From the NCBI GenBank assembly GCA_041661275.1, contig JBAZUU010000002.1:137148-201147 (forward strand): a DNA stretch of 64,000 bases. The letters run 5' to 3'. Positions 2,560 to 62,481 of the stretch are shown here, piece after piece. The stretch's first letter is position 1. Every line of letters starts with the position of its first letter. The stretch is from Parcubacteria group bacterium (GTDB lineage Bacteria > Patescibacteriota > Minisyncoccia > Moranbacterales > UBA2206). The position numbers and the translations under genes were made by a program. Under the pieces are notes generated by a model. That model did no database searches. It saw nothing but the letters and a program-made list of their open reading frames with translations, and was not told the DNA's origin.

Positions 2560-2615
2560 ATTTTGAATTTTTGTACCTTATTTTCAACTAATCCGCAGAA
2601 AAGGAGGCAACGGTT

Positions 2616-2732
2616 ATGTTATTACGAAGCTTTCGGGATTTCGCGAGAGAACCAATTTTTGTGAGAGCGGCCATAGTAGTATTTTTGGTTGTTGTAGTTG
2701 GAGCAATGGTTGCGGGCATTTTTTTGCCATAA
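2616..2732 (+). CDS. Small hydrophobic peptide (38 aa), hypothetical
   Basis: Strong SD AAGGAGG 7 nt upstream of the ATG; single TM-like segment; hairpin plus T-run downstream (~2790-2815). Confidence 0.3.
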   Translation: MLLRSFRDFAREPIFVRAAIVVFLVVVVGAMVAGIFLP

Positions 2733-3123
2733 ATCTTCAAGAAAGCATCTTGGTCGGAGTTTCTGCTCCTGAATCCCGCTTGTCGGGAAACAAAGCAGGG
2801 TTCCGACTTTTTTAAATCAAAAAGACCCCGGCGATAACGCTGGAGCCTTTTCTTTCCCTTAATAATCTGCCAATCATAAGTAATTTTGGAACTGAGTAAG
2901 TACTAGAAAAATTTGATGTACATGTTAATCAGGAACTAGTCATTGGCAAGTTGTTAAGGGAAAATCGTACTATCTTTTATTACGACTACCCATTATACAC
3001 CCAAATTAACAAAAAGTCAAGGGCATGTTTGCCGACTGCCAAATTGCGGCTTGTTTAAGGGGAAATATGGCAGGCGAAAAGTTGTACTATTTTAATTGAG
3101 AAATAAATATAGAATAGAAGGGG

Positions 3124-3333
3124 GTGATATATATGATGATGGCAAGTTGCAAGGATATGGGCGCAGATTGTGATTTTGTGGCCAAAGGCGAAACAGCATA
3201 TGATGTGAAAATGAAAATGATGGAGCACGCCAAGATGGATCACAAAGATATGATGGCCAAGATGGAAAGTATGTCTGATGACGAAAAGAAGAAGAATTGG
3301 GAGATGATGCTGAAAAATATGAAATGCGCTTAA
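3124..3333 (+). CDS. DUF1059-family small protein; true start probably one of the ATGs at 3133-3141
   Basis: SCKDMGADCDFVAKGETAYDVKMKMMEHAKMDH matches the DUF1059 pattern (C..G..C.F..R/K.ET..E....AH...H). GGGGGTG RBS precedes the ATG cluster. Confidence 0.55.
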   Translation: MIYMMMASCKDMGADCDFVAKGETAYDVKMKMMEHAKMDHKDMMAKMESMSDDEKKKNWEMMLKNMKCA

Positions 3334-3458
3334 TCTAGCTAGTACTATTTAAATAGTATTTACCAAAAACAACTTCCGCGAGGGGGTTGTTTTTGGTTGG
3401 GGGTGTACAGCTGCTTGGTTTTGTGGGATAATAGAGGTGTAAAAAATAAAATAAAAAA

Positions 3459-6400: not shown

Positions 6401-7724
6401 CGCAAAGCCACGCATTCGCATGTCTCTCTATTCTCCACTGGATATCCATCTCTATGATGAAAATGGAAATCATACTGGACCAAAAAAAGTTACTGATGAA
6501 AATGGAAAAGAGGGAATAATTTTTGAAGAGAATATTCCCAACAGCTACTATTATCAATTCGGTGATCGTAAATATGTTGGTGTGCCAGGTGAAGAAAACA
6601 TCCATATGACTATGGATGGATACGATAATGGAGCTTATACATTGAAGATGGAAGAAGTCATGGAAACTGTCGGCGGCGAAGAAATAATATCTCATACTAC
6701 CTTTGCCGATCTTCCAGTATCGCCTGAAACATCTGTAGCAGTAGATATTCCAGAATCAGGACTTGACAGCTTGTCCAATCTGGAAGCGGATTTTGATGGA
6801 AATGGAGAGGGTGACTATGAAGTTATCCCAATTCCTAATGGTGAAGCTACTCTTCCTGATATGATTCCCCCGCAAACCGCGATTGAGTTATCAGGGACGG
6901 AGGGTGATAATAATTGGTATGCCAGCGATGTCGCGGTGAAGCTTACTGCTGTGGACAATGAAGGAGGATCGGGAGTGAATACAATTTCTTATTCTTTTGA
7001 CAATGGTGCGTCATGGCAAGAATATTTTAATTCGGTGAACATCTCCGGAGAAGGAATATTTAGTTTTCAATATTTTTCCACTGATAAAAAGGGGAACAAG
7101 GAAGAGATAAAAACAGAAAGCATAAAAATAGACAGGACTGCCCCGGAAGCAAAATTTACATTTGATCAAAACAATCAGAAATTTAATATTATTGGGATGG
7201 ATAATTTGTCGCAAAATATTGCGGTTGAGACAGAAGAGCAGGCAGTCAATTCAAAGCCGGAAACCAAAAGGGGGATATTTTTCTGGATTTTTGATATAAT
7301 CAAGAACAGAAAGAAAGAAAAAAACATCATTGCGACTTTGCGTGATGAAGCCGGGAATGAAACGAAAATCAATTTTACGAAGAAAGAAAATAATGATCAT
7401 TTTATCAATATTTTCCCGGAGTCTATTTCGTATAATGGCGTAAAAACGGATTTTTCCAAATCATCGTTGCAATATAAATGGCTTCTGAATTGGAGAAAGA
7501 AAAACTATGTTCTTTTCGGATCGCACATTATGGCAGGAGATGAGCTTTTGGAATCGCACTATCTCCCCAAAAGAAATGAAACGTGGATAATGCAAAGGCC
7601 AAGAGAGCTTGATGACGATGATAATGACGATGACGCGGAGAGGCGTCCAGTCTGGAAAAAGCTTTCTGGAATGGTTGTGCCCTTCATCCAAACGGAACAA
7701 GGAAAAATTGAAATAAAATATTAA
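3459..7724 (+). CDS. Giant secreted/surface protein: signal anchor, parallel beta-helix repeats (~aa 150-480), LCAT/PGAP1-like alpha/beta-hydrolase (lipase/acyltransferase) domain (~aa 540-760), Ig-like domain (~aa 1148-1230), acidic C-terminus
   Basis: N-terminal hydrophobic segment. Repeated NNxxYGI / NxxxGIxL beta-helix units. YDWR motif and AHSNGG (GxSxG) nucleophile elbow. WYASDVAVKL..SGV..ISYSFDNGASW..IDRTAPEA Ig-like motif. Confidence 0.8.
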   Translation: MKLIKRGLVKKIARYFFVLIFSFLFFSISTTFAQDTENSFHIPGTLEGTGKHFEITDSEYLNISLDSSERIDVRIESMPEMIILQLKSSPDNDSAEINISGLSSKTTYHKYEDDYQNYAPLITNEYGAFSFEQDLTQDHIIFIQPRKSTKIIKDDATGYDCGGRNGVAGIGNWNASSKTCTLNKDVQETIQINSDDITLDGNGHNVTGSNTGNGIYALGKRNIIKNINVSNFSYGIYLRNSGSVTASTATNNYYGIYVYGNSANPPGVTISNNSIFNNHNYGISLFYTKDNEISDNIVGPGHWVGLFQTSSENSIIERNDFFENQYGLNLNGDYNNLNGNTIRNNSTSNFYLESSDMSTNSIGTDNTIDGMPIYYEKNVSNETYDSINMGAFYCANCQNITLKNISFSGKEAQMFFWHTDNSFVEEISSADKSIDARLYYSSNNTIAKNTIGSIRIYKSSNENKIYNNNIMTDDSGYTIANSSFGNLFNEPLPTGGNYWKANESTCRDLNNDKICDTPFYFDTGEDDYPWIQENDFSMPSGNSNVMFLPGIKASRLYKKDSGGGEDQLWEPNYFGNDLEDLTLDENGESVNSVYTRDVIDEIGTSWLGLGPNIYKTFINQLALLKNDGTINDYNIFAYDWRQSVEDIAENGTPYNGEIKSAIAELESLAGSSKSKKVTLVAHSNGGLLAKAIMLELEKTGKADKVDKIVFVGTPQMGTPKAILSMLYGYDESAIFGTLISESASRKLVENMPGAYGLLPSEKYFERTEEPFINFLSENTKYKSFMDAYQSGIDSFGEFREFLTGSGDGREKPDENDVESENKLSGNLFDQAGELHDNLDGWTAPENIQIIEIAGWGLDTITGVDYTEKEKAECYSYLGYIVPSCAGTGKYEPVYEPKFTVDGDKVVTAPSALMLPEGSNVKRYWVDLYRYNHDPIVNKNQNHSSIFEVSSIQQFLSDIIKNTSNPPLPEYIKTARPNDYNNAKPRIRMSLYSPLDIHLYDENGNHTGPKKVTDENGKEGIIFEENIPNSYYYQFGDRKYVGVPGEENIHMTMDGYDNGAYTLKMEEVMETVGGEEIISHTTFADLPVSPETSVAVDIPESGLDSLSNLEADFDGNGEGDYEVIPIPNGEATLPDMIPPQTAIELSGTEGDNNWYASDVAVKLTAVDNEGGSGVNTISYSFDNGASWQEYFNSVNISGEGIFSFQYFSTDKKGNKEEIKTESIKIDRTAPEAKFTFDQNNQKFNIIGMDNLSQNIAVETEEQAVNSKPETKRGIFFWIFDIIKNRKKEKNIIATLRDEAGNETKINFTKKENNDHFINIFPESISYNGVKTDFSKSSLQYKWLLNWRKKNYVLFGSHIMAGDELLESHYLPKRNETWIMQRPRELDDDDNDDDAERRPVWKKLSGMVVPFIQTEQGKIEIKY

Positions 7725-7747
7725 TAATTAATAAAGAAAATAAATTT

Positions 7748-8125
7748 ATGGAAAAGACATATCTGTGGAGAATTTTAACAATTTTACTTAGCCTTGTGCT
7801 ATTAGGTGCAGCGTATCTTATGAATGGACGAAATATTCTTTATTTGGAATCAATTAGTAGCCCATTGTTTGTTTTGAGTATGGCCATGTTGTTAGTTTCT
7901 ATCATCCTTCTTTTTATCAACGACAGAATTTTTCTCAAATGGCTTCGGTTTGCCATAGTTTGGGTTATTTTGTCAATAATTCTAATCGCGCTTACTCCCG
8001 AATATTCCGGCGGTTGGGTTCCTATGAATCCTGATCGGGAGTCGGTTTCCATTTGGATGGGTTCGCTTTTTGTTGTTTTGAGCCTGGCTAAAATTATTTG
8101 GGATTCATGGAAAGAGAAAAAATAA
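7748..8125 (+). CDS. Small polytopic membrane protein, hypothetical
   Basis: About four hydrophobic helices; no recognisable family. Confidence 0.5.
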   Translation: MEKTYLWRILTILLSLVLLGAAYLMNGRNILYLESISSPLFVLSMAMLLVSIILLFINDRIFLKWLRFAIVWVILSIILIALTPEYSGGWVPMNPDRESVSIWMGSLFVVLSLAKIIWDSWKEKK

Positions 8126-8320
8126 TAGGAAAAAAACACTGGGTATTCAGTCTAGTAGTGCTCGTGGTTGTTATAATCGCGGTATTAATTATTGTAGACA
8201 TGTTTTCAATTGGAACAATTTATTAATTTTGAAAAAAATATTTGGGACACATGGAAAGAAAAAAATAATCCCCAATCTTAAATTAAGGTTGAATCCTTGA
8301 GCGACGCTCAAGGACTGCTC

Positions 8321-8351
8321 ATAAAAACATAAAAAGGAGCGCGAACTCCTT
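8321..8351 (-). terminator. Candidate rho-independent terminator for the HNH gene
   Basis: Hairpin AAGGAG-CGCGAA-CTCCTT at 8334-8351, followed on the minus strand by TTTTATGTTTTTAT. Confidence 0.4.
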
Positions 8352-8384
8352 CCTATGCTTGCTACAGGTTAGACTTAGATAAAT

Positions 8385-8633
8385 CTAAACGCCGTAACTA
8401 CGTGTTTTTTCATGACAGGGAACGCATAATATTCGACAATTATCAACGGTATCAGAACCGCCAGCTTCTTGTGAAATAATATGGTGCGCATGCCATTTCC
8501 GATCCTCAATTTTATTTTGAGGATCAAGCATCTTGTTGCATCGACCATTATGATTGCAGGCGCCTAAGGTGCATTCACACTTTCCGCCCGCTCTACGCCA
8601 CGCTTGGTTGATGACTTCTTGAGAAAAAGCCAT
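8385..8633 (-). CDS. HNH endonuclease (small, stand-alone)
   Basis: C.C..C.HNGRC ... HAHHII..GGSD..DNCRILCVPCH zinc-finger/HNH signature. Confidence 0.8.
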   Translation of the reverse strand: MAFSQEVINQAWRRAGGKCECTLGACNHNGRCNKMLDPQNKIEDRKWHAHHIISQEAGGSDTVDNCRILCVPCHEKTRSYGV

Positions 8634-8799
8634 TGCGTTACATTATGGCCTTACCCCTAGAATAAAGTCTTGTTGGTTATCCGACTTCTAGGGAATCGGA
8701 AAGACGTCTTCAATTTAATATTATAGCAGCTGTATTATTTTAGTCAAGTGCATTTATGCACAACTATAAAGTTATCCACAATCACTATAATAAAGGTAG

Positions 8800-8836
8800 T
8801 TGACGTGTACAAACAGTCATATATAATGTATATATG
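8800..8836 (+). promoter_or_regulatory. Sigma70-like promoter of the lexA-like gene (TTGACG-N16-TATAAT), apparently leaderless, overlapped by palindrome CATATATA-ATG-TATATATG
   Basis: -35 at 8800-8805 and -10 at 8822-8827. The ATG at 8834 is ~7 nt after the -10. Perfect 8+3+8 palindrome at 8818-8836. Confidence 0.45.
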
Positions 8837-9472
8837 AGTATAAAACTAACGCCAAAACAAAGGAACGTTTTAGAATTTATTTACACATTTTTAGAAAATT
8901 CTGGCTTTCCGCCGTCAATTTCCGAGCTAAAAGAAGAGCTCAATGTTTCCTCCAACCAATCAGTTCTGAATTTTTTGGATACGCTTGAAAAAAAGGGCTA
9001 TATAAAAAGAGAAAAGGATCAAGCAAGAGGGCTAAAAATTTTACCGATGGGAGCCAGGGAAATTGGCAAAGACGTTTTAATAAAAGTAGTTGGAACAAGT
9101 GCGGCTGGACCATATATAGAATCCTACGCAAATGCATTTTCGTTTTATCCAGTACAAAAAGGAATTTTGGAAAAAGAAAATATTGCTGATTCCCAGGAGA
9201 AAGTTTTTGTTATTCAGGTTCAGGGTGATTCAATGACAAATATTGGAATAGAAAATGATGATATGCTTTTGGTGAAAGAAGCTAAGGAATTTAAAAGCGG
9301 TGATATTGTGGTGGCGGAAACTGATGAGGGTGCGACTGTCAAAAGATTTATTGCTGAAGGTGGAAAAAGATATTTGAAGCCTGAAAATCCAAACTACGAA
9401 AATATTCTAATAATACCTGGCGAAGTGAGATTTAGAGGAAGAGTAATTTTAAATTTAAGTAAAATAAAATAA
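8834..9472 (+). CDS. lexA: LexA-family repressor (winged-helix DNA-binding domain + S24 peptidase)
   Basis: N-terminus matches the LexA DNA-binding domain (LTPKQRNVLEFI..SGFPPSISEL). QVQGDSM Ser nucleophile and a downstream Lys form the S24 dyad. Confidence 0.85.
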   Translation: MSIKLTPKQRNVLEFIYTFLENSGFPPSISELKEELNVSSNQSVLNFLDTLEKKGYIKREKDQARGLKILPMGAREIGKDVLIKVVGTSAAGPYIESYANAFSFYPVQKGILEKENIADSQEKVFVIQVQGDSMTNIGIENDDMLLVKEAKEFKSGDIVVAETDEGATVKRFIAEGGKRYLKPENPNYENILIIPGEVRFRGRVILNLSKIK

Positions 9473-9476
9473 CAAG

Positions 9477-11435
9477 ATGCTCGAAAAAAATTTGCCTGTC
9501 GAAATAATCAACAAAGTATTCCGTGATCCGGATATGCAATTTGGTTTGGCAAATTTTAGCGATGTGAAGCTGGACCAGGTTTTGAAAATTTTTGAAGGCA
9601 AGGAAGATAAGGGAAAATTCTATGCCAAATGCTTAAAGCGAGGGAAAGACATTTTGATCTATAATGAAGAAAAAAAATTAGGAAAACCTGAGGAGATAAT
9701 CCGCCAGCTCATGGTCTATAAGCTGGTTAATTTTTATAAATACCCTATCGACCGCATCGATGTTGAAGTCGACGTGCAATTCGGACGTGAAATTGGAAAA
9801 AAAAGAGCAGACATTGTGGTTTATCGGGAAGACTTGAAAACTCCCTATTTACTGGTTGAGGTTAAAAAGCCGGATGTGAAAGATGGATTGGGACAACTCA
9901 AAAGCTACGCCAATGCCACTGGCGCGCCGATCCTGATTCTGACCGACGGAAAAATACAAAATAATATTCTTAGAACGGATCCAAATCTTTTTGAAGACCT
10001 GCCGGAGATTCCAAAATTTAACGAAACAGTTGATGACGTACGCAAGGAAAAAATTTCTTACGCAGATTTAAAAGAAGTTGAAAACTTAAAACAGCTTATT
10101 TATGATCTTCAAGAAGTGGTGTTGGCAAACAGTGGCGTCGATTCATTCGACGAAATTTTTAAACTAGTTTACGCCAAACTTTATGATGAGCTGGAAACTC
10201 CAAGAAGTGATAATAGAAGATTTAGGGTTATCGCTGGCGTAACCAATAAGGAAAATCTAGCTAATATCTGTCGTCTATTCGAAGACGCTAAAAAAGAATG
10301 GAAAGATGTTTTCAAGCCTAACGATGAAATAGAAATTCCGGAAAATGTTATTGTTCCGGCAGTTTCACTTCTTCAGAAATTCCGACTTTTTGGTTCTAAC
10401 CTCCAAGTTATTGATGACGCCTTTGAATATCTCATAAACTTGGATGCCAAAGGAGAAAAGGGGCAATATTTTACTCCCCGTCATGTTATCGATATGGCGG
10501 TCAAAATGCTGGCGCCTACTCCCAAGGATTCCATAATTGACACAGCTGCCGGATCTTGCGGGTTTTTACTTCATGCTATGCAATATGTTTGGGACAAAGA
10601 GATTAACAAAGAAAAATACGGTGATGATTATAAAACCAGACAGAAAAATTATGCCGAAAAGCAATTATTTGGAATTGATTTTGATCCTCGCAGCGTAAAA
10701 ATTGGAAAAGCGATGATGCTCATTGCAGGGGACGGAAAAACCAATGTTACATTTGCAAATTCTCTTGATAGCGAAAATTGGAGCGATGACGCTCGGACGA
10801 GATTCCGCCCGTTTCTTGCTAACTCTAAGGACAGTGAAGAAAACCGAAAAAACCAGGAACGAATGACTGATTTTAATTTTGATATTGTTATGACCAATCC
10901 GCCCTTTGCCGGAGAGATAAAGGGCGTGCTTCTCAATCGCTATGACTTGGGTTTCAAATGGGATAAGGAATTTCAAAAAACATCGAAGCATCAAAACAAG
11001 GTTTCTAGGGATATTCTTTTCATTGAGCGAAATTTGAATTTCCTAAAGCCTGGCGGACGAATGGCAATTGTTTTGCCGCAAGGGGTTTTCAATAATACCA
11101 ATTCCGAATATGTCCGGCGGTTTATTATGAATAAAGCGAAAATCTTAGCAGTGGTCGGACTTCATGGAAATACTTTTAAGCCGCACACCGGAACAAAAAC
11201 ATCGGTTTTGTTTTTGGAAAAGTGGGCCGGAAAACCACTTGAAGATTGTCCAATTTTTATGGCTGTTTCGAAACGCGGCGGAAAAGACACGTCAGGAGAT
11301 TATGTTTATAGGAAAGATAGAGAGGGGAATGTGATGTATGATGCAAGTGGGAAGAAAATCATTGATCATGATTTGGATGAGATTGCGGAGGAGTTTTTGA
11401 AATTCACAAATGAAAGCTATCTTAAATTGCAATAA
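9477..11435 (+). CDS. Bifunctional restriction endonuclease-N6-adenine DNA methyltransferase, BcgI subunit A-like (Type IIB/IIG-like): N-terminal HsdR_N-type PD-(D/E)XK domain + gamma-class MTase
   Basis: ADIVVY..LLVEVKK nuclease core (~aa 110-135). AdoMet motif I DTAAGSCGFLL precedes motif IV NPPFAG. 652 aa. No helicase/HsdR gene nearby. Confidence 0.75.
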   Translation: MLEKNLPVEIINKVFRDPDMQFGLANFSDVKLDQVLKIFEGKEDKGKFYAKCLKRGKDILIYNEEKKLGKPEEIIRQLMVYKLVNFYKYPIDRIDVEVDVQFGREIGKKRADIVVYREDLKTPYLLVEVKKPDVKDGLGQLKSYANATGAPILILTDGKIQNNILRTDPNLFEDLPEIPKFNETVDDVRKEKISYADLKEVENLKQLIYDLQEVVLANSGVDSFDEIFKLVYAKLYDELETPRSDNRRFRVIAGVTNKENLANICRLFEDAKKEWKDVFKPNDEIEIPENVIVPAVSLLQKFRLFGSNLQVIDDAFEYLINLDAKGEKGQYFTPRHVIDMAVKMLAPTPKDSIIDTAAGSCGFLLHAMQYVWDKEINKEKYGDDYKTRQKNYAEKQLFGIDFDPRSVKIGKAMMLIAGDGKTNVTFANSLDSENWSDDARTRFRPFLANSKDSEENRKNQERMTDFNFDIVMTNPPFAGEIKGVLLNRYDLGFKWDKEFQKTSKHQNKVSRDILFIERNLNFLKPGGRMAIVLPQGVFNNTNSEYVRRFIMNKAKILAVVGLHGNTFKPHTGTKTSVLFLEKWAGKPLEDCPIFMAVSKRGGKDTSGDYVYRKDREGNVMYDASGKKIIDHDLDEIAEEFLKFTNESYLKLQ

Positions 11436-12264
11436 ATATATGAATAACCCAAAAAGTACCTTGGGTCAGAAATGGATAAATTTTTTAAATGCTGTTTTTA
11501 GTCCAGTTCCAATTTTTTCATTATTAGGCGGATTAGGGCTTCTTTATTTGTCGGTGCACTATAAAGATGATGGCAGATTTTCAATCCTAATTAATTTGGC
11601 GGGCTCTCTTTTGATTGGTATCGGCGGTGCCTTTATTAAAGACAGATATGTTGAACTATCAAATGAATCAATTCTTATAAAAAAAGGTCAATCGGCAGTA
11701 AGAAATTTAGAATCTATCGCAAAACAAATAGAACAAATAAGATCTTGGCTTAAGTTTTTTATTTCTAGTAAAACATCAGATAAAAGAGATCTTGAAGAAA
11801 TCAATCGTCATTTAAGCACTACCGAAATGAACATTGCATCTGGGTTAGCAGATTGGATTGATATTGTTCCAGAGTTAAATAAAAAGGCGGAAGAAATGGC
11901 TGAAAAAGCAAAAAGCTATGAAGAAGTTGTTAAAACCTATGTTGAGGAATTATTTAAAAATAAAAAGAAGCTTTTAGAAGTGGGAGAGAATAAAAAACTT
12001 AAAGAACGATTACAAGAAAGCATAAAAAACCTGGAAAAAGAAGTAAGAGATTTAAAAAAATATAGGCCAGAATTTACTGCGAGTGGAATAATTAGTAGCT
12101 CATCCTTTGGTTCAAATGGAAACGGTCTTTCTTATTTAAATCGAAACTCTCTTGCACGTGGCCTATCAAAAACTTGTTCAAATTGCGGCAGAGTATTCGA
12201 AGATGATATAAATAGGCTTACCATCGGTCCGGATTTGTGCGAGGAATGCAGAAAAACAATATGA
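11410..12264 (+). CDS. Membrane-anchored coiled-coil protein with C-terminal CxxC..CxxC zinc ribbon, unknown function; alternative start at 11439
   Basis: Two N-terminal TM helices, a long K/E-rich predicted coiled coil, and CSNCGRVF..CEEC. Overlaps both flanking RM genes by 26-28 nt (translational coupling). Confidence 0.5.
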   Translation: MKAILNCNKYMNNPKSTLGQKWINFLNAVFSPVPIFSLLGGLGLLYLSVHYKDDGRFSILINLAGSLLIGIGGAFIKDRYVELSNESILIKKGQSAVRNLESIAKQIEQIRSWLKFFISSKTSDKRDLEEINRHLSTTEMNIASGLADWIDIVPELNKKAEEMAEKAKSYEEVVKTYVEELFKNKKKLLEVGENKKLKERLQESIKNLEKEVRDLKKYRPEFTASGIISSSSFGSNGNGLSYLNRNSLARGLSKTCSNCGRVFEDDINRLTIGPDLCEECRKTI

Positions 12265-13598
12265 TAAACTGTTCAATAATCCAAAAATCCCATCTTGAAG
12301 GCGCGATGCGATTAGATGCTGAATATTATTGTAGCGATTCATTAATCGGGTCTAATTTTCATCTAGGCAAAGACGTTGTTTCTTTTGTTCAGTATGGTAC
12401 ATCAAAAGAATTAAACGAGGAAAATAGAGGCTATCCGGTTTTGCGGCTCAATGAATTTGAGGATTGGTTCGCGGGACAACCGACGAAATATTGCAATAAG
12501 ATTAGTGAACAAACTTTTAATGGTTTAAAGCTCAAAAAAGGGGATGTATTAATTTGCAGAACCAATGGGAATCCTAAGCTTGTAGGAAAAGCTGCTCTCG
12601 TTGCGGAAAATACCAACATTGCTTTTGCTTCGTATTTATTTAGAGTTCAAGCTGATTCTTTAAAAATTAATTCCGCCACACTTACTGCGTTTTTAAATTC
12701 TAAAATCGGCAGAGCAGAGATTGAAAAATTTATTATGCCTAGCATTCAATCTAACTTCAGCCCTGCTCAATTTAGACAAATTAAAATACCTATTTTTCCA
12801 CCAGCCTTACAAAAAGAAATTGAAACGCGTTTATTTGACTCATATGAACTTTTAGCCGATTCGAAATCTTCTTATCAGCAAGCTGAAGATTTACTATTAG
12901 AAGAGCTGGGATTAAAAAATTTTGATTTTGAAAAAATATTGTCATCAGTTGTTAATTATTCCGATGTTCTAGAAGCTGAAAGAATAGACGCAGAATATTT
13001 TCAGCCGAAATATGAAAAACTGATTTCGAAAATAAAGGAAAGAAATTATAAAACCTTGCCGGAAATTATAGAAAATGTGCCTGCTGTTTTTAACGCCGCT
13101 TCAAAACCGTCAGAAAATTTCAAATACGTAGAGTTATCAAATATTAATCCTTCCGTTGGAATAATTGATGGTTTTTCAGAAGTATCAGGAAGAGAAGCGC
13201 CAGGAAGAGCGAAAAGAATATTAAAGTCTGGCGATGTAATAGTTTCAAGTGTAGAAGGATCGCTGGAAAAAGTTGCGCTGGTTGATAAAGAGCAAGATGG
13301 ACATCTTGCATCAACAGGATTTTTTCAATTGCGAAGTGATAAAATTTTGCCAGAAGTTTTACTTGTTATAGCCAGGAGTTTGGTTTTTCAAATGCAACTC
13401 GAAAAGCAATGTGCTGGAACAATTCTTACTGCCGTGCCAAAAGAGGCGATAAAAAATATTGTTGTACCAATCTTACCGAAAGAAACGCAGCAAAAAATCG
13501 CTGATCTTGTGCGACAGTCGCACAAAGCGCGGAAAAAGGCGAAAGAGCTTTTAGAAGAAGCGAAAAGGAAAGTTGAAGGGATGATAGAGAATAAATAA
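12237..13598 (+). CDS. hsdS: Restriction-modification specificity subunit (HsdS/BcgI-B-like, two target-recognition domains)
   Basis: Duplicated halves (RLDAEYY.. / RIDAEYFQP..). Central and C-terminal conserved helical spacers (IPIFPPALQKEIETRL..; ILPKETQQKIADLVR..). Confidence 0.85.
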   Translation: MRGMQKNNMINCSIIQKSHLEGAMRLDAEYYCSDSLIGSNFHLGKDVVSFVQYGTSKELNEENRGYPVLRLNEFEDWFAGQPTKYCNKISEQTFNGLKLKKGDVLICRTNGNPKLVGKAALVAENTNIAFASYLFRVQADSLKINSATLTAFLNSKIGRAEIEKFIMPSIQSNFSPAQFRQIKIPIFPPALQKEIETRLFDSYELLADSKSSYQQAEDLLLEELGLKNFDFEKILSSVVNYSDVLEAERIDAEYFQPKYEKLISKIKERNYKTLPEIIENVPAVFNAASKPSENFKYVELSNINPSVGIIDGFSEVSGREAPGRAKRILKSGDVIVSSVEGSLEKVALVDKEQDGHLASTGFFQLRSDKILPEVLLVIARSLVFQMQLEKQCAGTILTAVPKEAIKNIVVPILPKETQQKIADLVRQSHKARKKAKELLEEAKRKVEGMIENK

Positions 13599-13851
13599 TT
13601 CTATGGAACAAAAAGAATTTGAGAAATTTATATTGTACGTATTGATTGTAGTGTTTTTTACCGAGCAACTTCCTTTTGACATGAATAATGAGAAAAAACA
13701 CCAAAGCCCGCATATACCAGAGGAAAATCGGACTTCTGCAGTCTTGGGTGTTCCCACATATTCTATGTCTATCACAGCCTCTCCCTCACAAGCGCCAGAT
13801 GAGTAAGAATAGTCGAAAAGAAAAAGAAAAGAAAAAGGGGTCAAGAAAAGA

Positions 13852-13898
13852 AAAAGGGGTCAAGTACCTTTAATTACGTAATTAATTACTTACAAAAA
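13852..13898. repeat. Island gene-terminal motif, copy 1 (GGGTCAAGTACCTTTAATTACGTAATTAATTACTTACA)
   Basis: Near-identical to the 5' parts of copies at 14891.. and 18261... Contains the palindrome TTAATTACGTAATTAA. Confidence 0.6.
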
Positions 13899-14210
13899 AA
13901 TAAAAATTATCTTCTTGCTGTTTTGATGTTCCTTCTTGGCATCGGCATTGGGCTTTGGATGGGGAAAATAAAATACTCCCAAAATAAAAGCATAGTTTCG
14001 ACAAGTTAGCAGTTGTCAACTGATGCTCTACGTATGTAAGCAATATTTAGGCTTGCCATAGCCAAAAAATCAAGCTTAGGTACATATCCTACTCCAGAGT
14101 ATACTACTTATGAGTACGATAAATCAATCGAGGACCGTTCTCGATTAGTTGTTAAAAAAATGTATGCACGTTTATGACAGACAAAGAATTGATGGGAATG
14201 AAAAATTTTT

Positions 14211-14861
14211 ATGCGCATAATTGCTAAAGCGATACAATATCTGATGCTGAAGATTATGAAAAGGCTTGGTCCTTCGGATGATGACAGGCCGGCTGTTGCT
14301 GCGGCGGACCAGTTGTTGGATAAATTGCTTCCGTCTGCTTTCGCGGTTTTTCGCGATGAGAGGTTTAGGGAAGTGTGTAATTTTGGGAAAATCAGCCAGG
14401 TCGAGCATGATAGGATCTTTAACGAGCTGGAAGTGTCCGCTATCATCCTTTGTCAGTTTTGTATTGATGATCGTATGGCGATTATCGGAAATCGCGATTT
14501 TCATTTTTGGGAAACCGTCCGCGAGAATATGCCAAAAGTTTTTGTGGATAAGCTTCTGGAATATGGCGTGAAAAAAAGCGATGCTGACTTATATTTCGAC
14601 CTTATCAAGATGAGACATGACCAATATTCGAAAATCGCCGATGGCAACCGCGATCATATGGAAAATGACAAGCTATTTTCAGAATATAAAGATAGCCAGG
14701 CAGCTATGGATACGCTAAATAGGGTGCAGGCGATAATTGTGGGTACGGCGGATCATATTCGCCGGGGAAAATTAAAAAAAGGGGACGAATTGATGCGGCT
14801 GCTCAGGTCATGGCTGTTTCCCCTTGATATGGAAATTTCAAAATTTATTCGGAAACTATAA
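14211..14861 (+). CDS. Hypothetical protein (216 aa), no recognisable family; locally GC-richer
   Basis: Longest ORF in the region with a coding-like profile. Overlapping minus-strand ORFs are judged spurious. Confidence 0.45.
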   Translation: MRIIAKAIQYLMLKIMKRLGPSDDDRPAVAAADQLLDKLLPSAFAVFRDERFREVCNFGKISQVEHDRIFNELEVSAIILCQFCIDDRMAIIGNRDFHFWETVRENMPKVFVDKLLEYGVKKSDADLYFDLIKMRHDQYSKIADGNRDHMENDKLFSEYKDSQAAMDTLNRVQAIIVGTADHIRRGKLKKGDELMRLLRSWLFPLDMEISKFIRKL

Positions 14862-14890
14862 TCGGGATCATACAGAAATGATTCAAAAAA

Positions 14891-15017
14891 GGCCAAGTAC
14901 CTTTAATTACGTCCCGGTTAATTAAAAATTAACCACAGTAGTATAATAAATTAACTACGTGGCAGGCGGGATAAATAATTAACTACTTACATAATAAAAA
15001 ACCAAAAGTTATCCACA
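14891..15017. repeat. Island gene-terminal motif, copy 2 (extended), ending in AAGTTATCCACAGACGG (DnaA-box-like TTATCCACA at 15009-15017)
   Basis: GGCCAAGTACCTTTAATTACGT ... AATTAACTACTTACA ... ACCAAAAGTTATCCACAGACGGATGACCATTTTA is shared with the copy at 18261-18345. Confidence 0.6.
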
Positions 15018-15019
15018 GA

Positions 15020-15220
15020 CGGATGACCATTTTACTGTCTCCGGTAAGATGGTCAAAAACATCAATAATAAAGATCAATTTATCGGAGCCGGTAAAATGA
15101 TGAAAATAACTAAAAATAGAAATCATAAGACAAAAGACCATTTTCGTTATATCAAGAAAATGGTCAAAAAGAGCAATTGGGAAACAGAGGATCATTTTGT
15201 CAGTGCCGACAAAATGATAA
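15020..15220. repeat. Tandem array of four palindromes GA(C/T)CATTTT-N6..10-AAAATG(G/A)TC spaced ~55 nt apart
   Basis: Arms at 15025-35/15045-55, ~15073-15100 (degenerate), 15136-45/15156-65 (perfect 10 bp) and 15189-15200/15207-17 (perfect 11 bp). Confidence 0.6.
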
Positions 15221-15300
15221 AAATCGATCCATGAGACCTGGGAAAGTCTTTCTTGTTAGAAATAACGGGGAGAGTTATCCACAGGCGATAATATTGCCAT

Positions 15301-15344
15301 AAGCTGGTTATAGTGATATGATATCACTGTAAGCAGCTTTTTTA
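15301..15344 (+). terminator. Terminator/attenuator-like hairpin with nested perfect palindrome AGTGATAT-G-ATATCACT, followed by TTTTTT, 5 nt upstream of the recQ start
   Basis: Outer stem AAGCTG/CAGCTT, inner palindrome 15312-15328, T-run 15338-15343. Confidence 0.45.
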
Positions 15345-15348
15345 AATC

Positions 15349-16950
15349 ATGCTTGAAAAACAATTAGAAAAATATTTTAACTTTACCGAATTTCGTCCCG
15401 GTCAAAGGGAAATCGTGGAAACTATTATGTCCGGTCGTGATGTGGTGGCTCTTATGCCGACTGGCGGGGGAAAATCTCTTTGCTATCAATTGCCGGCGAT
15501 CATGAGTGACAAAATTTCGGTCGTCATTTCTCCGCTTATCGCGCTTATGAAAGATCAGGTAGACAGTCTCAACGCGCGCGGAATTCCGGCCACTTTTATA
15601 AACAGCAGTTTAACTTCAGATGAAATAGGAAAACGAATCGAAGACATTAAAAATAACCGGACAAAAATAATTTATGTGGCGCCGGAAAGATTTGGAAACG
15701 CCTCCTGGCAAAAATTGTTTTCCGAACTCGATGTTTTTTTGTTCGCGGTTGATGAAGCTCATTGTGTGTCGCAATGGGGTCATGATTTTCGTCCGGACTA
15801 TCTGGCCATAAAAAAATATATTGCCAACTTGAAGAATCGTCCGGTGGTGGCTGCCTTTACGGCGACGGCCACGCCGGAAGTTAAAAATGATATCATCGAA
15901 CGCCTGGAACTGCAAAATCCCGAAGTTTTTATCCGTGGTTTTGATCGGCCAAATTTGAAATTTTTTGTGGAAAGCAACTTGAAACCGAAGGAAAAATACG
16001 CGGAAGTTTTGCGGATAATTAAGGCTATGGCCGGATCGGGGATAGTTTACGCTTTGACGCGAAAAGACACTGAATTTATCGCCGAATTTTTGCGTCAAAA
16101 TAATATAGTAGCCGCGGCTTATCACGCGGGAATGGAGGCGGAGAAGCGAAAACGGATCCAGGAGGAATTTATGGACAATAAATTCAAGGTAATTGTGGCA
16201 ACCATTGCTTTTGGCATGGGAGTGGACAAAGCGGATATCAGATTTGTGATCCACAGCGGTATGCCCGGAAGCATAGAAGGCTATTATCAGGAAGCCGGAA
16301 GAGCGGGACGCGATGGCGAACAAGCCTTTTGTATCTTGCTTCATGGCAAAAAAGACGTCAGTACCCACAAGTTTTTTATTCGTATGAGTCAGGACGAAAT
16401 GTTTCTGCAAAATAAGACATGGGAAGAGATAAAAAGGGTAGTTGGCATAAAATATGACCGGCTGGAAAAAATGATCGAATATGCTACTCGCCCCAATTGC
16501 CGCCGAAAGATGATCTTGAAATATTTTAGCGATCCGGATTACGAAAGACATAAGGAAAATTGCCGAGGGTGTGATTTTTGCCTGGATTGGAAAAAATCAG
16601 CCGGAGATGCCCAGAAAAGAAAGGAGGCTATCCGTGGTAACAAAAGTTTTCTATCTTCCACTGTTAAAATATCAGCCGATTATTATGAGAAAGGAACGTC
16701 TCTTGAAAATATAGCCAGGATAAGGGGACTTGGTTTAAGGACAATCATTGATCATCTGATCGACTGGTACGCCACCGGAGGAAATCTGCGAGTGGAAGAT
16801 CTTATCAACGCGGAAGAAGAAGGGCTGATAATTTCTGCTATTGAAAAGATCGGAAGCCGAGACAGGCTAAAGCCGATAAAAGATATTCTGCCGGAAGAGA
16901 TCGGTTATGAAAAGATAAAGCTGGTGATAGTTAAGTGGGAAAGAAAGTAG
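15349..16950 (+). CDS. recQ: ATP-dependent DNA helicase RecQ (short form with zinc-binding RQC and C-terminal HTH-like region)
   Basis: FRPGQREIVETIMSGRDVVALMPTGGGKSLCYQLPA; DEAHCVSQWGHDFRPDY; C..C..C.C zinc motif. Confidence 0.9.
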   Translation: MLEKQLEKYFNFTEFRPGQREIVETIMSGRDVVALMPTGGGKSLCYQLPAIMSDKISVVISPLIALMKDQVDSLNARGIPATFINSSLTSDEIGKRIEDIKNNRTKIIYVAPERFGNASWQKLFSELDVFLFAVDEAHCVSQWGHDFRPDYLAIKKYIANLKNRPVVAAFTATATPEVKNDIIERLELQNPEVFIRGFDRPNLKFFVESNLKPKEKYAEVLRIIKAMAGSGIVYALTRKDTEFIAEFLRQNNIVAAAYHAGMEAEKRKRIQEEFMDNKFKVIVATIAFGMGVDKADIRFVIHSGMPGSIEGYYQEAGRAGRDGEQAFCILLHGKKDVSTHKFFIRMSQDEMFLQNKTWEEIKRVVGIKYDRLEKMIEYATRPNCRRKMILKYFSDPDYERHKENCRGCDFCLDWKKSAGDAQKRKEAIRGNKSFLSSTVKISADYYEKGTSLENIARIRGLGLRTIIDHLIDWYATGGNLRVEDLINAEEEGLIISAIEKIGSRDRLKPIKDILPEEIGYEKIKLVIVKWERK

Positions 16951-16990
16951 ATATTTTTTGACAGAGACGCCAAAAAACGGGAGAATAGAG

Positions 16991-17014
16991 AAGTAAGTAA
17001 CTAATTACTTATGC
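16991..17014. repeat. Partial copy of the island gene-terminal motif after recQ (AAGTAAGTAACTAATTACTTATG)
   Basis: Resembles the TAATTAATTACTTACA core of the other copies and sits ~45 nt after the recQ stop. Confidence 0.35.
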
Positions 17015-17222
17015 GCAGATTTGTGAAATTGGAAGAGGAAAGATAGAATATAATTTGGGGGAAGATTGAGGAAAAACTAAAGACGACGCTGAAAGAAAAA
17101 TGTTAAAAAAATTAGTATTTTAGGAACAAGTGATAATGGTCTTGTTGATGACAAATTCAAGAAAACATCAGGTTTAACAAAAGATTTTTTATTAAGCATA
17201 AGAAAGTGGAAAAATAAAAATT

Positions 17223-18242
17223 ATGAAAAATAATATATTAAATAACAATAATTCCGGCGAAATAATTATATATGAAGGCGCGGATGGGGCGCCTAGCATT
17301 GAAGTGCGCGTTGAGGGTGAGACGGTGTGGCTGTCACAATCACAACTCGTTGAGCTTTTTCACTCAAGCAAGGCAAATGTGAGCGAGCATATCAAGCACA
17401 TATTTAAAGAGGCTGAATTAAGCCAAGATGCAGTTGTTCGGAATTTCCGAACAACTGCGAGTGATGGAAAAAATTACAACATTGAGCACTACAATCTCGA
17501 CATGATTATCTCTTTGGGTTATAGAATAAAGTCGGATATTGCCACACATTTTCGCCAGTGGGCGACTTCGCGACTTCGTGAATACCTCGTTCAAGGATTC
17601 ACAATGAATGATGAGTTTTTGAAAAACAATGGCGGTGGCTTATATTGGAAGAAACTCTTGTCTCGCATCCGTGATATTCGATCCAGTGAAAAGATGCTGT
17701 ATAGACAAGTCCTGGATCTCTATGCCACAAGCGCGGATTATGATCCTAAATCTCTACATTCAATTAAGTTTTTCAAAATTGTGCAAAACAAATTGCACTA
17801 CGCCGCGCATAAACAGACAGCATCAGAAGTTATTTATAATCGCGCCGATAGTGATAAAAAATTTATGGGTTTGACGGTTTTTGCAGGAGATTTGCCAGTA
17901 CTCGAAGAAGTGAGAATTGCTAAAAATTATTTGTCCGCGCAAGAGTTGGAAAGATTGAACAGACTTGTCTCGGCATATTTCGAATTGGCGGAATTGCGCG
18001 CTATGGATCAGCAAGTAATGCATATGGCGGATCATATTGCATCTTTAGATAAATTACTTTCTGATTACGGCGAAGGTGTTTTGATTGATGCTGGAAAAGT
18101 AACGCATAAAAAAGCCATAGAAAAAGCAGAAAGTGAATACAAAAAATATCAAACTAAAACACTTTCGCCCGCAGAAGGAGCGTATTTGGAAAGCATTAAA
18201 ACTTTAGAGAAAAAGGTTAAAAATAATAAACCAAAGAAATAA
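17223..18242 (+). CDS. RhuM-family (virulence-associated) protein
   Basis: ETVWLSQSQLVELF..HIKHIFKE..KNYNIEHYNLDMIISLGYRIKS matches the RhuM family signature block. Confidence 0.8.
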   Translation: MKNNILNNNNSGEIIIYEGADGAPSIEVRVEGETVWLSQSQLVELFHSSKANVSEHIKHIFKEAELSQDAVVRNFRTTASDGKNYNIEHYNLDMIISLGYRIKSDIATHFRQWATSRLREYLVQGFTMNDEFLKNNGGGLYWKKLLSRIRDIRSSEKMLYRQVLDLYATSADYDPKSLHSIKFFKIVQNKLHYAAHKQTASEVIYNRADSDKKFMGLTVFAGDLPVLEEVRIAKNYLSAQELERLNRLVSAYFELAELRAMDQQVMHMADHIASLDKLLSDYGEGVLIDAGKVTHKKAIEKAESEYKKYQTKTLSPAEGAYLESIKTLEKKVKNNKPKK

Positions 18243-18260
18243 TATGAGGAGGGAGAAAAA

Positions 18261-18363
18261 GGGTCAAGTACCTTTGGTTTTGTAATTAATTACTTGCATA
18301 TACGAAAGACCAAAAAGTTATCCACAGACGGATGACCATTTTAACCGGTTGGTTAAAATGGTC
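18261..18363. repeat. Island gene-terminal motif, copy 3, with DnaA-box-like TTATCCACA (18318-18326) and perfect palindrome GACCATTTTAACC-GGTT-GGTTAAAATGGTC (18334-18363)
   Basis: GGGTCAAGTACCTTTGG..TAATTAATTACTTGCA..ACCAAAAAGTTATCCACAGACGGATGACCATTTTA. Confidence 0.6.
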
Positions 18364-18435
18364 TGACAGGTTTGTTTTTAGGCGGAAAATGTGCTAAAAA
18401 TAATATATAGCGAACGTTAATTTTCCAGGACTTTT

Positions 18436-19602
18436 ATGAAAGTTTTATTTTTTAATTACGAATATCCGCCACTTGGCGGGGGAGCGGCTTATGCTTCACA
18501 GAATATTTTGAGAGAATATGCCAAACTCACTGATGTTGAAGTGGATTTTGTGACGTCGTCACTGGACAATCAATATCACCTGGAAAAAATGGGCGAAAAT
18601 ATCAGAGTCCATCGGCTTCCCATCGGCAAGAATAAAAATAATCTGACATATCAATCGCAAAAAGATCTCCTGGTCTATGCCTGGAAGTCCTATTTTTTTT
18701 CCAAAAAACTGATCAGCGAGGCTAATAAGAATAAAAAACCATATAATCTGACCCATTCCTTTTTTTCCGTCCCTTGCGGATTTGTTTCTATGATACTAAA
18801 GAAAAAATATAGATTGCCTTACATTGTTTCTCTTCGCGGATCCGATGTTCCGGGCTATTCGGAAAGGTTTTCTTTCATCTACTGTTTTTTGAAACCTCTG
18901 ATAATTCGTATTTGGAAAAAAGCCGGAGCAGTTGTGGCTAACAGTTCGATGCTTCGCGATCTGGCTTTGAAAAGTAATAACCAACAAAAGGTTGATGTTA
19001 TCTATAATGGGATAAATATTGAACATTTTAGGCCTGGAGCTATTTCAAGAGAAAATAAAAATTTCACTATTCTTTGCGCTTCCCGTCTTTCTAGAAGAAA
19101 GGGGTTTGATTATGTTATTGACGCCTTCAATAAAATTCACGAAAAATATCCAGAAGCACGCTTGGTGATTGCCGGTGGGGAGGGGAATGCCGAAGAAGAA
19201 TTAAAAAACCAGACGAAAGAATTAAAATTAGAAAATAAAATAACTTTTACCGGTTTTGTGACACCTAACACCCAATTTTTGAAATATTACAATGCCGCTG
19301 ATGTTTTTGTCCTGCCGTCGCTCAATGAAGGAATGAGCAACAATATGCTGGAAGCGATGGCCAGCGGCCTCCCGATAATTATGACGCCGACCGGCGGGGC
19401 GGAAGAGCTGATAAAAGACGGCGTCAATGGGTGTATCGTCAGATTCAAAGATAGCGCGGACATTGCGGAAAAATTGGAAAAGTTGATAAACAATCCAGAA
19501 CTTTGCAAAAAAATGGGCATTGAAAGCCGTAAGATCGCTGAAAAAATGAGTTGGAAAAGCGTGGCGGAGAAATATTATGAATTATATAAAAACATAGCAT
19601 GA
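18436..19602 (+). CDS. GT4 glycosyltransferase
   Basis: C-terminal EGMSNNMLEAMASGLPII..GG..E (E-x7-E) motif. Confidence 0.85.
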   Translation: MKVLFFNYEYPPLGGGAAYASQNILREYAKLTDVEVDFVTSSLDNQYHLEKMGENIRVHRLPIGKNKNNLTYQSQKDLLVYAWKSYFFSKKLISEANKNKKPYNLTHSFFSVPCGFVSMILKKKYRLPYIVSLRGSDVPGYSERFSFIYCFLKPLIIRIWKKAGAVVANSSMLRDLALKSNNQQKVDVIYNGINIEHFRPGAISRENKNFTILCASRLSRRKGFDYVIDAFNKIHEKYPEARLVIAGGEGNAEEELKNQTKELKLENKITFTGFVTPNTQFLKYYNAADVFVLPSLNEGMSNNMLEAMASGLPIIMTPTGGAEELIKDGVNGCIVRFKDSADIAEKLEKLINNPELCKKMGIESRKIAEKMSWKSVAEKYYELYKNIA

Positions 19603-61559: not shown

Positions 61560-61729
61560 AAAAATGGTATAAAGTATACGGTATTTAGTAGCTAGTATGG
61601 GAATTATAGCATAAATATCGAGGCTGTGGATAACTTTCTTTGACTTAATTTTTAATCAATGAAAGAATAAAAATAACAGTTCTTTCTTCGAATATGATTG
61701 GTGAGGCGTGGAATTAGCCCAAACTCTAG

Positions 61730-61972
61730 CCTATACGAGTGGAGGGTTGCAGGATTGCTGTCTGTCAATAACGGACCGACAGAGACAAAAAGGATAGGAG
61801 ATATACACAATATGGCTCTTTCCTTGCATATCCTGAGTAGGATCATAGATCCGAAGCAGGGAGTTACCTCCCAAGGCTAAACCCTCGCCAATTATCTTTT
61901 CATCACATTTCATCACATTTTTTCTCTTTCCGGCACTATCTTATCTCTATCAGATAGTGCTTTTTCTTTTTG
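61730..61972 (+). ncRNA. Candidate structured non-coding RNA (unknown class) with its own terminator, upstream of iscR
   Basis: Enclosing helix TGGAGGGTT/AACCCTCGCCA around four local hairpins. Terminator CACTATCT-N10-AGATAGTG plus CTTTTTCTTTTTG (61934-61972) on the plus strand, although the upstream gene is on the minus strand. Confidence 0.3.
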
Positions 61973-62001
61973 TTGACAAAATTTGATACGCTTAGTATTA
62001 T
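61973..62001 (+). promoter_or_regulatory. Sigma70-like promoter of iscR (TTGACA-N17-TATTAT)
   Basis: Consensus -35 (61973-61978) and near-consensus -10 (61996-62001), ~30 nt upstream of the start codon. Confidence 0.55.
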
Positions 62002-62032
62002 TAACATATACTAATATAGTAGGAATAAGAAA

Positions 62033-62419: not shown

Positions 62420-62424
62420 GCGAG

Positions 62425-62481
62425 CTCTCCTTCTCTCCCTTTGGGAGAGAAGTCCTGATTCTTATCAGGACAGAGAGGGAA
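62425..62481. repeat. MITE/REP-like element family 2, type A variant
   Basis: TCTCTCCC-TTTG-GGAGAGA + AGTCCTGAT-TCT-TATCAGGAC + AGAGAGGGA. Confidence 0.55.

Follow-up and report, generated by a model that had tools for sequence, protein, structure and literature searches.

A mosaic accessory insertion with a predicted type IIB-like restriction-modification operon headed by lexA in a Patescibacteria glycan-biosynthesis locus

A 15.9-kb insertion between UDP-glucose dehydrogenase and GT4

We analyzed a 64,000-nucleotide stretch of DNA (hereafter, the window) from a Parcubacteria group bacterium (assembly GCA_041661275.1, contig JBAZUU010000002.1, positions 137,148 to 201,147), focusing on a block of accessory genes that lies between two conserved genes on the forward strand, a UDP-glucose dehydrogenase (UDPGdh; 1252-2559; Pfam UDPG_MGDP_dh N, central and C domains) and a GT4 glycosyltransferase identified with Pfam (18436-19602). 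A reading of the sequence alone had placed a putative laterally acquired defence or mobile island at 8087-18435, and all the genes named in that original prediction are present according to Pfam, PADLOC and NCBIfam: a stand-alone HNH nuclease, a LexA repressor, a restriction-modification (RM) operon, an open reading frame (ORF) designated orf216, a RecQ-family helicase and a RhuM-family protein. To their left, the block also contains a DUF1059 gene, a gene for a 1421-aa surface protein and a small membrane gene.

With one genome taken per species, we retrieved relatives of GT4 and located the window proteins in their surroundings, enabling a comparison of the junction across 12 loci from metagenome-assembled genomes (MAGs; L006-L015, L017 and L018), including Paceibacterota and Moraniibacteriota, in which the GT4 orthologues are 45-77% identical to the window protein and upstream synteny is conserved. 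Gene order in all 12 loci is p102, UDPGdh where present, GT4 and LPG_synthase_TM. The gene preceding GT4 is either UDPGdh or p102, and the spacing before GT4 is 21-91 bp; UDPGdh itself occupies that position in nine of these loci and is missing there in some relatives. Since the 12 relatives hold only 21-91 bp at the orthologous site, the 15,876 bp that separate the end of UDPGdh (2559) from the start of GT4 (18436) in the window constitute extra, lineage-specific DNA (2560-18435). The accessory island is therefore real, as anticipated, but its left border lies at 2560 rather than at 8087, and the conserved pair is UDPGdh/GT4 and not the membrane gene/GT4 junction that had been put forward.

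The opposite polarity, in which the 16-kb block is ancestral and the compact UDPGdh/GT4 junction results from repeated deletion, would be in keeping with the streamlined and deletion-prone genomes of the Candidate Phyla Radiation (CPR) and with the lack of visible insertion scars. It would nevertheless call for many independent and precise deletions, given that 12 of 12 loci spanning 45-77% GT4 identity are compact, some of them without UDPGdh, and the LexA-RM module of the block sits at another site in a further genome (L037, below); we consider it very improbable.

Machinery for autonomous mobility was not detected. As originally reported, there is no integrase: neither the Pfam scan nor precomputed hits revealed an integrase, transposase or recombinase domain in any of 53 window ORFs, a set comprising all genes up to 29.5 kb and the larger ORFs beyond, with several ORFs of 120-160 aa after 40 kb left out. 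The window holds no tRNA, and no tRNA or tmRNA target flanks the insertion. No direct repeats mark the ends of the insertion, with no repeat common to 2560-3458 and 18243-18435, and a blastn-short search of all island intergenic segments against the window returned no repeat joining both ends. No Rfam family reached the gathering threshold in the window, and none was found at E<=5 around 8250-8850. Contigs of other samples encoding identical proteins display the same layout as the window.

The composition of the block does not set it apart. Its GC content ranges from 0.35 to 0.43 across island windows, with a window mean of ~0.39, and its tetranucleotide distance to the rest of the window (15.4 +/- 2.1) shows no deviation from that observed elsewhere (13.5 +/- 1.9). 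The description of orf216 as GC-richer does not hold either, for the GC content of the 14-15 kb segment that contains it (0.396) equals the window average and exceeds only that of the RM genes (0.35). The block is hence indistinguishable from its surroundings in composition, whereas its presence and gene order are not conserved among relatives.

A recurrent operon headed by lexA

The core of the insertion is a five-gene operon (8834-13806) comprising lexA, a nuclease-methyltransferase gene (M), a gene in a variable slot, a specificity gene (S) and a 67-aa ORF, tightly packed with 4-nt gaps or overlaps throughout. The first gene (8834-9472, + strand) encodes a LexA repressor with LexA_DNA_bind (PF01726) and Peptidase_S24 (PF00717) domains that scores 147 bits against TIGR00498 (cut-off 111) and aligns over its full length to a solved LexA structure (8s7g), preserving the A91-G92 cleavage site, the S133 nucleophile (in GDSM) and the K170 general base. 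The second (9477-11435, +) encodes a 652-aa bifunctional nuclease-methyltransferase, a predicted type IIB-like RM subunit with HSDR_N_2 (residues 71-179), N6_Mtase (311-585) and Eco57I domains, whose best solved relative is RM.BsaXI (8w0p, E 4e-24), the match covering only the methyltransferase part (residues 200-589). The motifs of both activities are intact: the PD-(D/E)XK triad D112/E128/K130, the NPPF motif at 474-477 and the S-adenosylmethionine-binding motif DxxxGSCGF are invariant in an alignment of 27 M homologues at 60-86% identity. The slot gene (11440-12264, or from 11410; +; 274 or 284 aa) is followed by the S gene (12261-13598, or from 12237; +), encoding an HsdS subunit with two target-recognition domains (TRDs; Methylase_S in two stretches, PADLOC Specificity_I), and the operon closes, after a 4-nt gap, with the 67-aa ORF (13603-13806, +), which has no sequence family; L033 and L034 have ORFs of similar size and position.

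Given the fusion in M, the two-TRD S subunit and the absence of HsdR among the scanned window ORFs (Pfam), the architecture is that of BcgI and BsaXI, and M and S would constitute a type IIB-like RM system, in agreement with the BcgI-like label originally given to the operon. Like these enzymes, the window system would combine an N-terminal PD-(D/E)XK nuclease and a gamma-class N6-adenine methyltransferase (NPPF) in one polypeptide, with a separate two-TRD S subunit and no HsdR translocase. It differs from them in the variable gene between M and S and in the presence of LexA in the operon; cutting on both sides of a bipartite recognition site is a putative property of the window enzyme. Between loci, S is only 31-62% identical while M is 78-84% identical, a divergence of the kind expected if specificity is diversifying. 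An assignment to the MADS system was considered and discarded, with MAD2 reaching 300 bits against a cut-off of 720, MAD5 reaching 137 against 400, and the other MAD genes being absent.

The operon recurs in many related bacteria. With M as query, a search retrieved over 80 clusters that are 74-87% identical to it, those with names originating in Nomura-, Moran(i)- and Pacebacteria MAGs, and a further group at 64-68% identity that includes Uhr-, Gracili- and Absconditabacteria. Within the high-identity group, all 10 loci examined encode LexA 1-8 bp ahead of the methyltransferase (the window, L025, L031, L032, L033, L034, L037/L038, L039 and ERZ1426720), of which L037/L038, L039 and ERZ1426720 were reached from the LexA side, through LexA clusters chosen for their absence from the listed methyltransferase hits; in addition, approximately 28 LexA clusters match a methyltransferase cluster in the size of their longest contig. 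LexA had been listed as a separate island gene, yet all related loci examined have it at the head of the RM operon.

The genomic context of this module varies widely. It lies between thioredoxin (trxA) and thioredoxin reductase (trxB) in L025, among ribosomal protein genes in L031, after rpoBC in L039 and ERZ1426720, and between a RecB-like PDDEXK_1 gene and Aminotran_5 in L037. The last of these loci is otherwise syntenic with the window at 54-64 kb, sharing an S41 peptidase, CTP synthase (68% identity), PDDEXK_1 (59%) and Aminotran_5 (59%). In the two segments compared (L037 5732-13333 and window 60435-63860), L037 carries the whole LexA-RM module together with an M23 peptidase gene at a site where the window has only an Rrf2 regulator gene, and no decayed copies of lexA, M or S were found at the window PDDEXK_1/Aminotran_5 site. 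This comparison indicates that the module occupies different sites even where local gene order is conserved.

The gene between M and S is as variable as the surroundings of the operon, with at least seven unrelated occupants and a content that differs in almost every locus: a 332-aa ORF in L025, DUF3800 in L031 and L039 (plus a 173-aa ORF in L031), a 165-aa ORF in L032, NYN with an ORF of ~110 aa in L033 and L034, a 243-aa ORF in L037 and a 788-aa AAA_13/SMC_N protein in L036 (Absconditabacterales). The window occupant, as read from its sequence, would have two transmembrane helices and a coiled coil, with a CxxC..CxxC motif at the C terminus. It has no family match above curated cut-offs and only weak coiled-coil-type matches, and its own family comprises 357 cluster representatives at E<=1e-3; homology between the window and L025 occupants was considered and none was detected.

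In a sister clade (65-67% methyltransferase identity), M and S are adjacent, a 69-aa HTH_3 gene, typical of RM controllers in both kind and placement, lies 4 bp upstream of M, and further defence genes are found downstream (SIR2 with DUF87, or SLFN/AlbA_2 plus GmrSD). Outside CPR, an M and S pair with ~43% identity occurs without LexA on a Klebsiella IncF plasmid, and a longer M-type homologue on the Picosynechococcus plasmid pAQ6.

This distribution bears on an alternative in which this CPR clade inherited lexA-M-X-S vertically as an ancestral core operon and RecQ serves housekeeping; the region would be ordinary chromosome moved by rearrangement, and M and S would mainly methylate, in an epigenetic or orphan capacity. 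The 74-87% identity of the methyltransferase in more than 80 clusters, the linkage to LexA in 10 of 10 loci, the native composition, a LexA score above the equivalog threshold and the location of the operon among housekeeping genes in other genomes all accord with this scenario. We regard it as unlikely, for the invariance of D112, E128 and K130 over 60-86% identity would argue for retained cleavage, the S subunits diverge to 31-43% identity in an arms-race-like manner, the operon site differs even between locally syntenic genomes, and the M and S family is plasmid-borne in other phyla.

The lexA control region (8771-8827, +) combines the sequence GTTATCCACA, matching the DnaA-box consensus, with a TTGACG-16-TATAAT element at 8800-8827 that ranks first among the sigma-70-like matches of the + strand between 2.4 and 19 kb and ends 6 nt before the ATG. 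This architecture is conserved in L037 and L031. The -10 box ends 6 nt before the ATG in the window (8827-8836) and in other lexA loci, which suggests that the lexA mRNA is leaderless. Between the -35 and -10 elements, seven lexA promoters contain a palindrome-like (A/T)TGACT-N4-AGTCAT, of which the window copy is degenerate. As a common SOS box, an ATGACT-N4-AGTCAT-like site was rejected, with 2 matches in the window against 3.9 expected, and no such site was found upstream of recQ, rhuM or the PDDEXK_1 gene.

Downstream genes and shared intergenic motifs

Three further genes follow the operon. The first, orf216 (14211-14861, +), belongs to an uncharacterised Patescibacteria-only family: neither the window protein nor any of its 62 other homologues has a Pfam domain, and its AlphaFold2 model (pLDDT 94), which is all-alpha, has no Foldseek match in PDB or BFVD. 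In L040, an orf216 homologue is directly followed by RhuM.

The second gene encodes a RecQ-family helicase (15349-16950, +) with DEAD, Helicase_C and RecQ_Zn_bind domains and an HTH_40 tail, scoring 462 bits against TIGR00614 (cut-off 220). Homologues with 71-80% identity are found in several other contexts. RecQ follows the LexA-RM module only in the window and in L025, and a small ORF in L021 and L022; L023 is cut within recQ and has the same upstream motif. In L024 (7960-11632), and similarly in L020, the genes ahead of an 80%-identical RecQ encode an Eco47II-type endonuclease and a MerR-fused C5 methyltransferase, indicating that RecQ adjoins unrelated RM systems in different genomes. The PADLOC matches to DpdF and PsyrT come from general similarity to RecQ, and both Dpd and PsyrTA were rejected, for no Dpd or PsyrA partners are present and only non-coding DNA and RhuM adjoin the gene. 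We read RecQ as a repair helicase that tends to adjoin variable DNA, and not as a defence gene. Some 6 kb downstream of the LexA-RM-RecQ block of L025 lies a reverse transcriptase (RVT_1) gene (18076-19059).

The third gene (17223-18242, +) encodes a RhuM-family protein (Pfam 3e-98) that PADLOC matches, at 1.5e-148, to the defence candidate PDC-S05, and it is also found near the LexA-RM operon in L033 and ERZ1426720. The defence content of the block amounts to one RM system, RhuM (as PADLOC candidate PDC-S05 only) and the stand-alone HNH nuclease. Of the original interpretation, the presence of an RM system and of a RhuM-type defence candidate is borne out, but the reading of LexA and RecQ as independent cargo is not.

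RecQ, RhuM and orf216 are thus recurrent but loose neighbours of the operon, and the block, rather than being a single integrative element, is a mosaic whose modules are found apart from one another elsewhere in Patescibacteria. The original interpretation, a single laterally acquired defence or mobile island at 8087-18435 between the membrane gene and GT4 with all genes as independent cargo, has in its favour that an RM system, RhuM (PDC-S05) and HNH are typical island cargo and that the region is missing in relatives. It appears distinctly improbable given that the conserved junction is UDPGdh/GT4, which leaves the membrane gene and the 1421-aa protein inside the insertion, that LexA is part of the RM operon in every locus examined, and that the modules occur separately elsewhere and no border repeats were found.

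The conserved repeats said to punctuate the island proved to be motifs common to other Patescibacteria loci and gene fragments, rather than borders. The sequence GTTATCCACA, a perfect DnaA-box consensus, has five occurrences in the window where 0.08 would be expected (8771, 15008, 15274 and 18317 on the + strand; 61625 on the - strand). It lies upstream of lexA, the DinD-like fragments described below, recQ and GT4, while the site on the - strand precedes the PDDEXK_1 gene at 61.6 kb. Elsewhere it lies upstream of lexA (L031 6269, L037 ~6935), recQ (L021 561, L022 906, L023 913) and a DinD-like gene (L033), and it is absent from the loci of the GT4 relatives. The recQ upstream region (15274-15327, +) combines it with the palindrome GTGATATGATATCAC, in a layout shared with the regions preceding recQ in L021-L023 and the DinD-like gene in L033, and some recQ and DinD-like copies (window, L021, L033) have a palindrome, GTGATATNATATCAC, overlapping the -10 region. 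The GTTATCCACA sites may reflect a DnaA-dependent or other common regulon of DNA-damage genes. An origin of replication at the DnaA-box cluster near 15 kb was rejected, since cumulative GC skew rises monotonically across it.

A second motif, GGTCAAGTACCTTT..GTAATTAATTAC, is present in three copies following the stop codons of the 67-aa ORF, orf216 and RhuM. Copy 1 spans 13852-13894 (+). Copy 2 belongs to a segment (14885-15237, +) that also contains the first copy of a composite repeat (D2) and four tandem, hairpin-forming DinD-like DHFxxxxKMV fragments, and copy 3 is combined with the second copy of D2 (18256-18363, +), including a GTTATCCACA site and the fragment DDHFNRLVKMV followed by a stop codon. 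The palindrome GTAATTAATTAC occurs three times in the window (13878, 16997 and 18282) against 0.4 expected, always inside the island, and six times in other LexA-RM loci (L033 269, 11617, 12733, 13879 and 14487; L031 5246), located 40-72 nt past accessory-gene stop codons; there are no occurrences in 210 kb of GT4-relative loci. This gene-end motif could be a terminator, a recombination site or a cassette boundary.

A 31-nt exact repeat (15004-15034 and 18313-18343) joins GTTATCCACA to a DDHFxxxxKMV-coding fragment, and the apparent 61-aa ORF at 15049-15234 consists of four degenerate tandem copies of the DHFxxxxKMV fragment. The hairpin-forming units GACCATTTT..AAAATGGTC at 15022-15237 and 18331-18366 encode this peptide, and the DNA palindrome coincides with the conserved peptide motif. 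We take DHFxxxxKMV to be a motif that also occurs in DinD, and the units resemble the remains of a dinD-like gene, of which the 91-aa ORF that precedes RhuM in L033 would be an example. Logan assemblies of the same strain, built at k = 31, break exactly at the two D2 copies. The intergenic repeats are shared regulatory or boundary motifs together with gene debris, and not attachment (att) sites.

Such debris, together with a duplicated gene end in the left part of the insertion (below), suggests decay, and it could be taken to indicate a decayed prophage or integrative element in which LexA would act as a CI-like repressor, with HNH, RhuM and the DinD-like fragments left over from a phage. LexA indeed matches PHROG repressor families, and relatives of RhuM with 56% identity are found on IMG/VR contigs. 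The block, however, contains no structural, packaging, replication or integrase genes, with PHROGs yielding only repressor, HNH and helicase matches; there is no megablast match to phage or plasmid collections; the methyltransferase and orf216 have no IMG/VR relatives; and LexA passes the equivalog cut-off and is full-length, like cellular LexA. We deem this origin extremely unlikely.

Proposed regulation and origin of the block, and remaining features

The explanation that best accounts for these results jointly is a 15.9-kb mosaic accessory insertion in the UDPGdh/GT4 pair of a cell-envelope glycan cluster in a Paceibacteria-type CPR bacterium, with a core five-gene lexA-RM operon that is LexA-controlled and accessory genes that are exchanged without a dedicated recombinase. 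We assign it a probability of roughly 0.62. Under the regulatory model that we propose, LexA would repress the entire RM operon through the promoter at 8800-8827; DNA damage or phage attack would then elicit RecA-stimulated self-cleavage of LexA, leading to increased production of the bifunctional enzyme and of the slot gene product. Modification and restriction would rise together because both reside in one polypeptide, and expression of the RM system and the accessory gene would be tied to RecA-sensed DNA damage. LexA would thus take the part for which the sister clade probably uses a small helix-turn-helix (HTH) controller (C) protein. With regard to origin, we infer that the block was formed by recombination and had no recombinase of its own, and the M-S slot and the downstream region (orf216, RecQ, RhuM and the DinD-like fragments) would exchange genes by recombination between Patescibacteria.

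Several observations weigh against this explanation. The GC content and tetranucleotide usage of the block carry no sign of foreign origin, and the strong conservation of lexA-M (74-87% methyltransferase identity in many lineages) could denote a vertical core operon that has merely been reshuffled. The nearest relatives share only 77% GT4 identity, which places the timing of the insertion and the number of events beyond resolution. Putative control of the RM genes by LexA is deduced from gene order and a promoter match, and the candidate operator, ATGACT-N4-AGTCAT-like, is degenerate in the window and not enriched elsewhere in it. Lastly, the operon may already have been described in a 2017 study of the Patescibacteria SOS regulon; in the literature that we searched, no paper joins LexA, RM and CPR.

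A broader generalization is possible, but we advance it only tentatively: in a large clade of Patescibacteria, lexA (possibly the only copy) would head a conserved type IIB-like RM operon with a hypervariable slot, replacing the C protein and forming an SOS-gated innate immunity module that relocates without its own recombinase, in which the gene-end motif GGTCAAGTACCTTT..GTAATTAATTAC might mark exchangeable units.

The proposed arrangement has partial counterparts in known systems. In RM operons with C proteins, a small transcription factor is likewise encoded immediately upstream and co-transcribed, and the 69-aa HTH_3 gene of the sister clade occupies that position. The window operon departs from them in having a full LexA with a self-cleaving S24 domain, which would add a DNA-damage input that C proteins lack. 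In the window, LexA takes the place of a controller of the C-protein family (Xre/HTH_3) upstream of the RM genes; HTH_3 was encountered only in the clade with 65-67% identity, and the analogy is therefore one of position. In lexA-headed SOS cassettes, such as lexA-dinF and lexA2-imuA-imuB-dnaE2, lexA is promoter-proximal and the downstream genes are damage-inducible. The window operon resembles them in the promoter-proximal location of lexA and in the repair-type genes nearby (RecQ, RecB-like PDDEXK_1 and DinD-like/RhuM), and differs in that an RM system and a variable gene, rather than polymerases or transporters, lie downstream. Type I RM loci with an embedded accessory defence gene are also known, as in the case of PrrC within EcoprrI. 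Here, too, an unrelated and exchangeable gene is found inside an RM operon (NYN, DUF3800 or AAA_13/SMC-like), but the slot lies between M and S of a two-subunit system and none of its occupants is a characterised effector.

CPR/Patescibacteria mostly do without CRISPR and are thought to rely on simple defences, whose regulation and exchange are poorly known. Accessory regions of Patescibacteria have been reported to carry RM genes and to exchange them mostly among Patescibacteria (PMC12455944); the islands described there, predicted with IslandViewer, harbor classical type I systems, and LexA is not mentioned. The hsdM-like genes of CPR have also been surveyed (bioRxiv 10.64898/2026.07.13.738296), again without mention of LexA. 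The island as such is hence ordinary, while the lexA-type IIB-like RM operon with an exchangeable inner gene and the substitution of LexA for a C protein look like new versions of known arrangements. If LexA gates the RM system and its cargo, the operon would tie innate immunity directly to the SOS response in a major uncultivated radiation, and would represent a natural swap of controller type, from an HTH C protein to a damage-sensing one. The M-S slot provides a ready place to seek new defence or toxin genes. For annotation purposes, LexA and RecQ beside RM genes should not be taken as independent island cargo, and island borders guessed from function can miss by several kilobases.

The left part of the insertion contains three genes on the + strand: a 66-aa DUF1059 protein (3133-3333; PF06348), a 1421-aa secreted beta-helix/LCAT-type lipase-like protein (3459-7724; Pfam Beta_helix, NosD, LCAT and PGAP1) that was not found near GT4 in relatives, and a 125-aa DUF202 membrane protein (7748-8125; PF02656). 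The end of the membrane gene (8090-8126) is repeated 144 bp downstream as a degenerate second copy of its last 11 codons and stop (8234-8269, +; 89% identical), which reads EKNIWDTWKEK where the original reads AKIIWDSWKEKK before the stop codon and has lost one base just before the stop. This suggests a decayed paralogue or a recombination scar.

Divergent from lexA lies the stand-alone HNH nuclease (82 aa; 8385-8633, -; Pfam HNH 1e-08), whose position is taken by DUF1508 or other small genes in other loci. This small gene is preceded by a conserved leader of ~75 nt (8645-8716, -) with counterparts in L031 (6143-6231, -) and L033 (6154-6243, -), where the downstream gene is DUF1508 instead of HNH. 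All three sequences pair in a 5-bp stem that includes three compensatory pairs, and a 10-nt palindrome co-varies (AAGACGTCTT vs AAGGTACCTT). The leader has no match in Rfam and is a candidate for a new cis-regulatory RNA.

Outside the insertion, a 132-aa PDDEXK_3 gene (800-1198) sits between p102 and UDPGdh, framed by 19-bp inverted repeats at 783-801 (CCGATTCGAATCAACGAAT) and 1230-1248. The p102-UDPGdh gap is 26-127 bp in the four closest relatives, and the gene with its inverted repeats may be a small selfish insertion. On the other side, the island is followed by a very large glycan-biosynthesis cluster (18436-55300) with six PMT/PMT_2 genes and many GT2 and GT4 genes, which also holds a flippase, a Wzy-like ligase, YdjC, LytR and a second UDP-glucose dehydrogenase.

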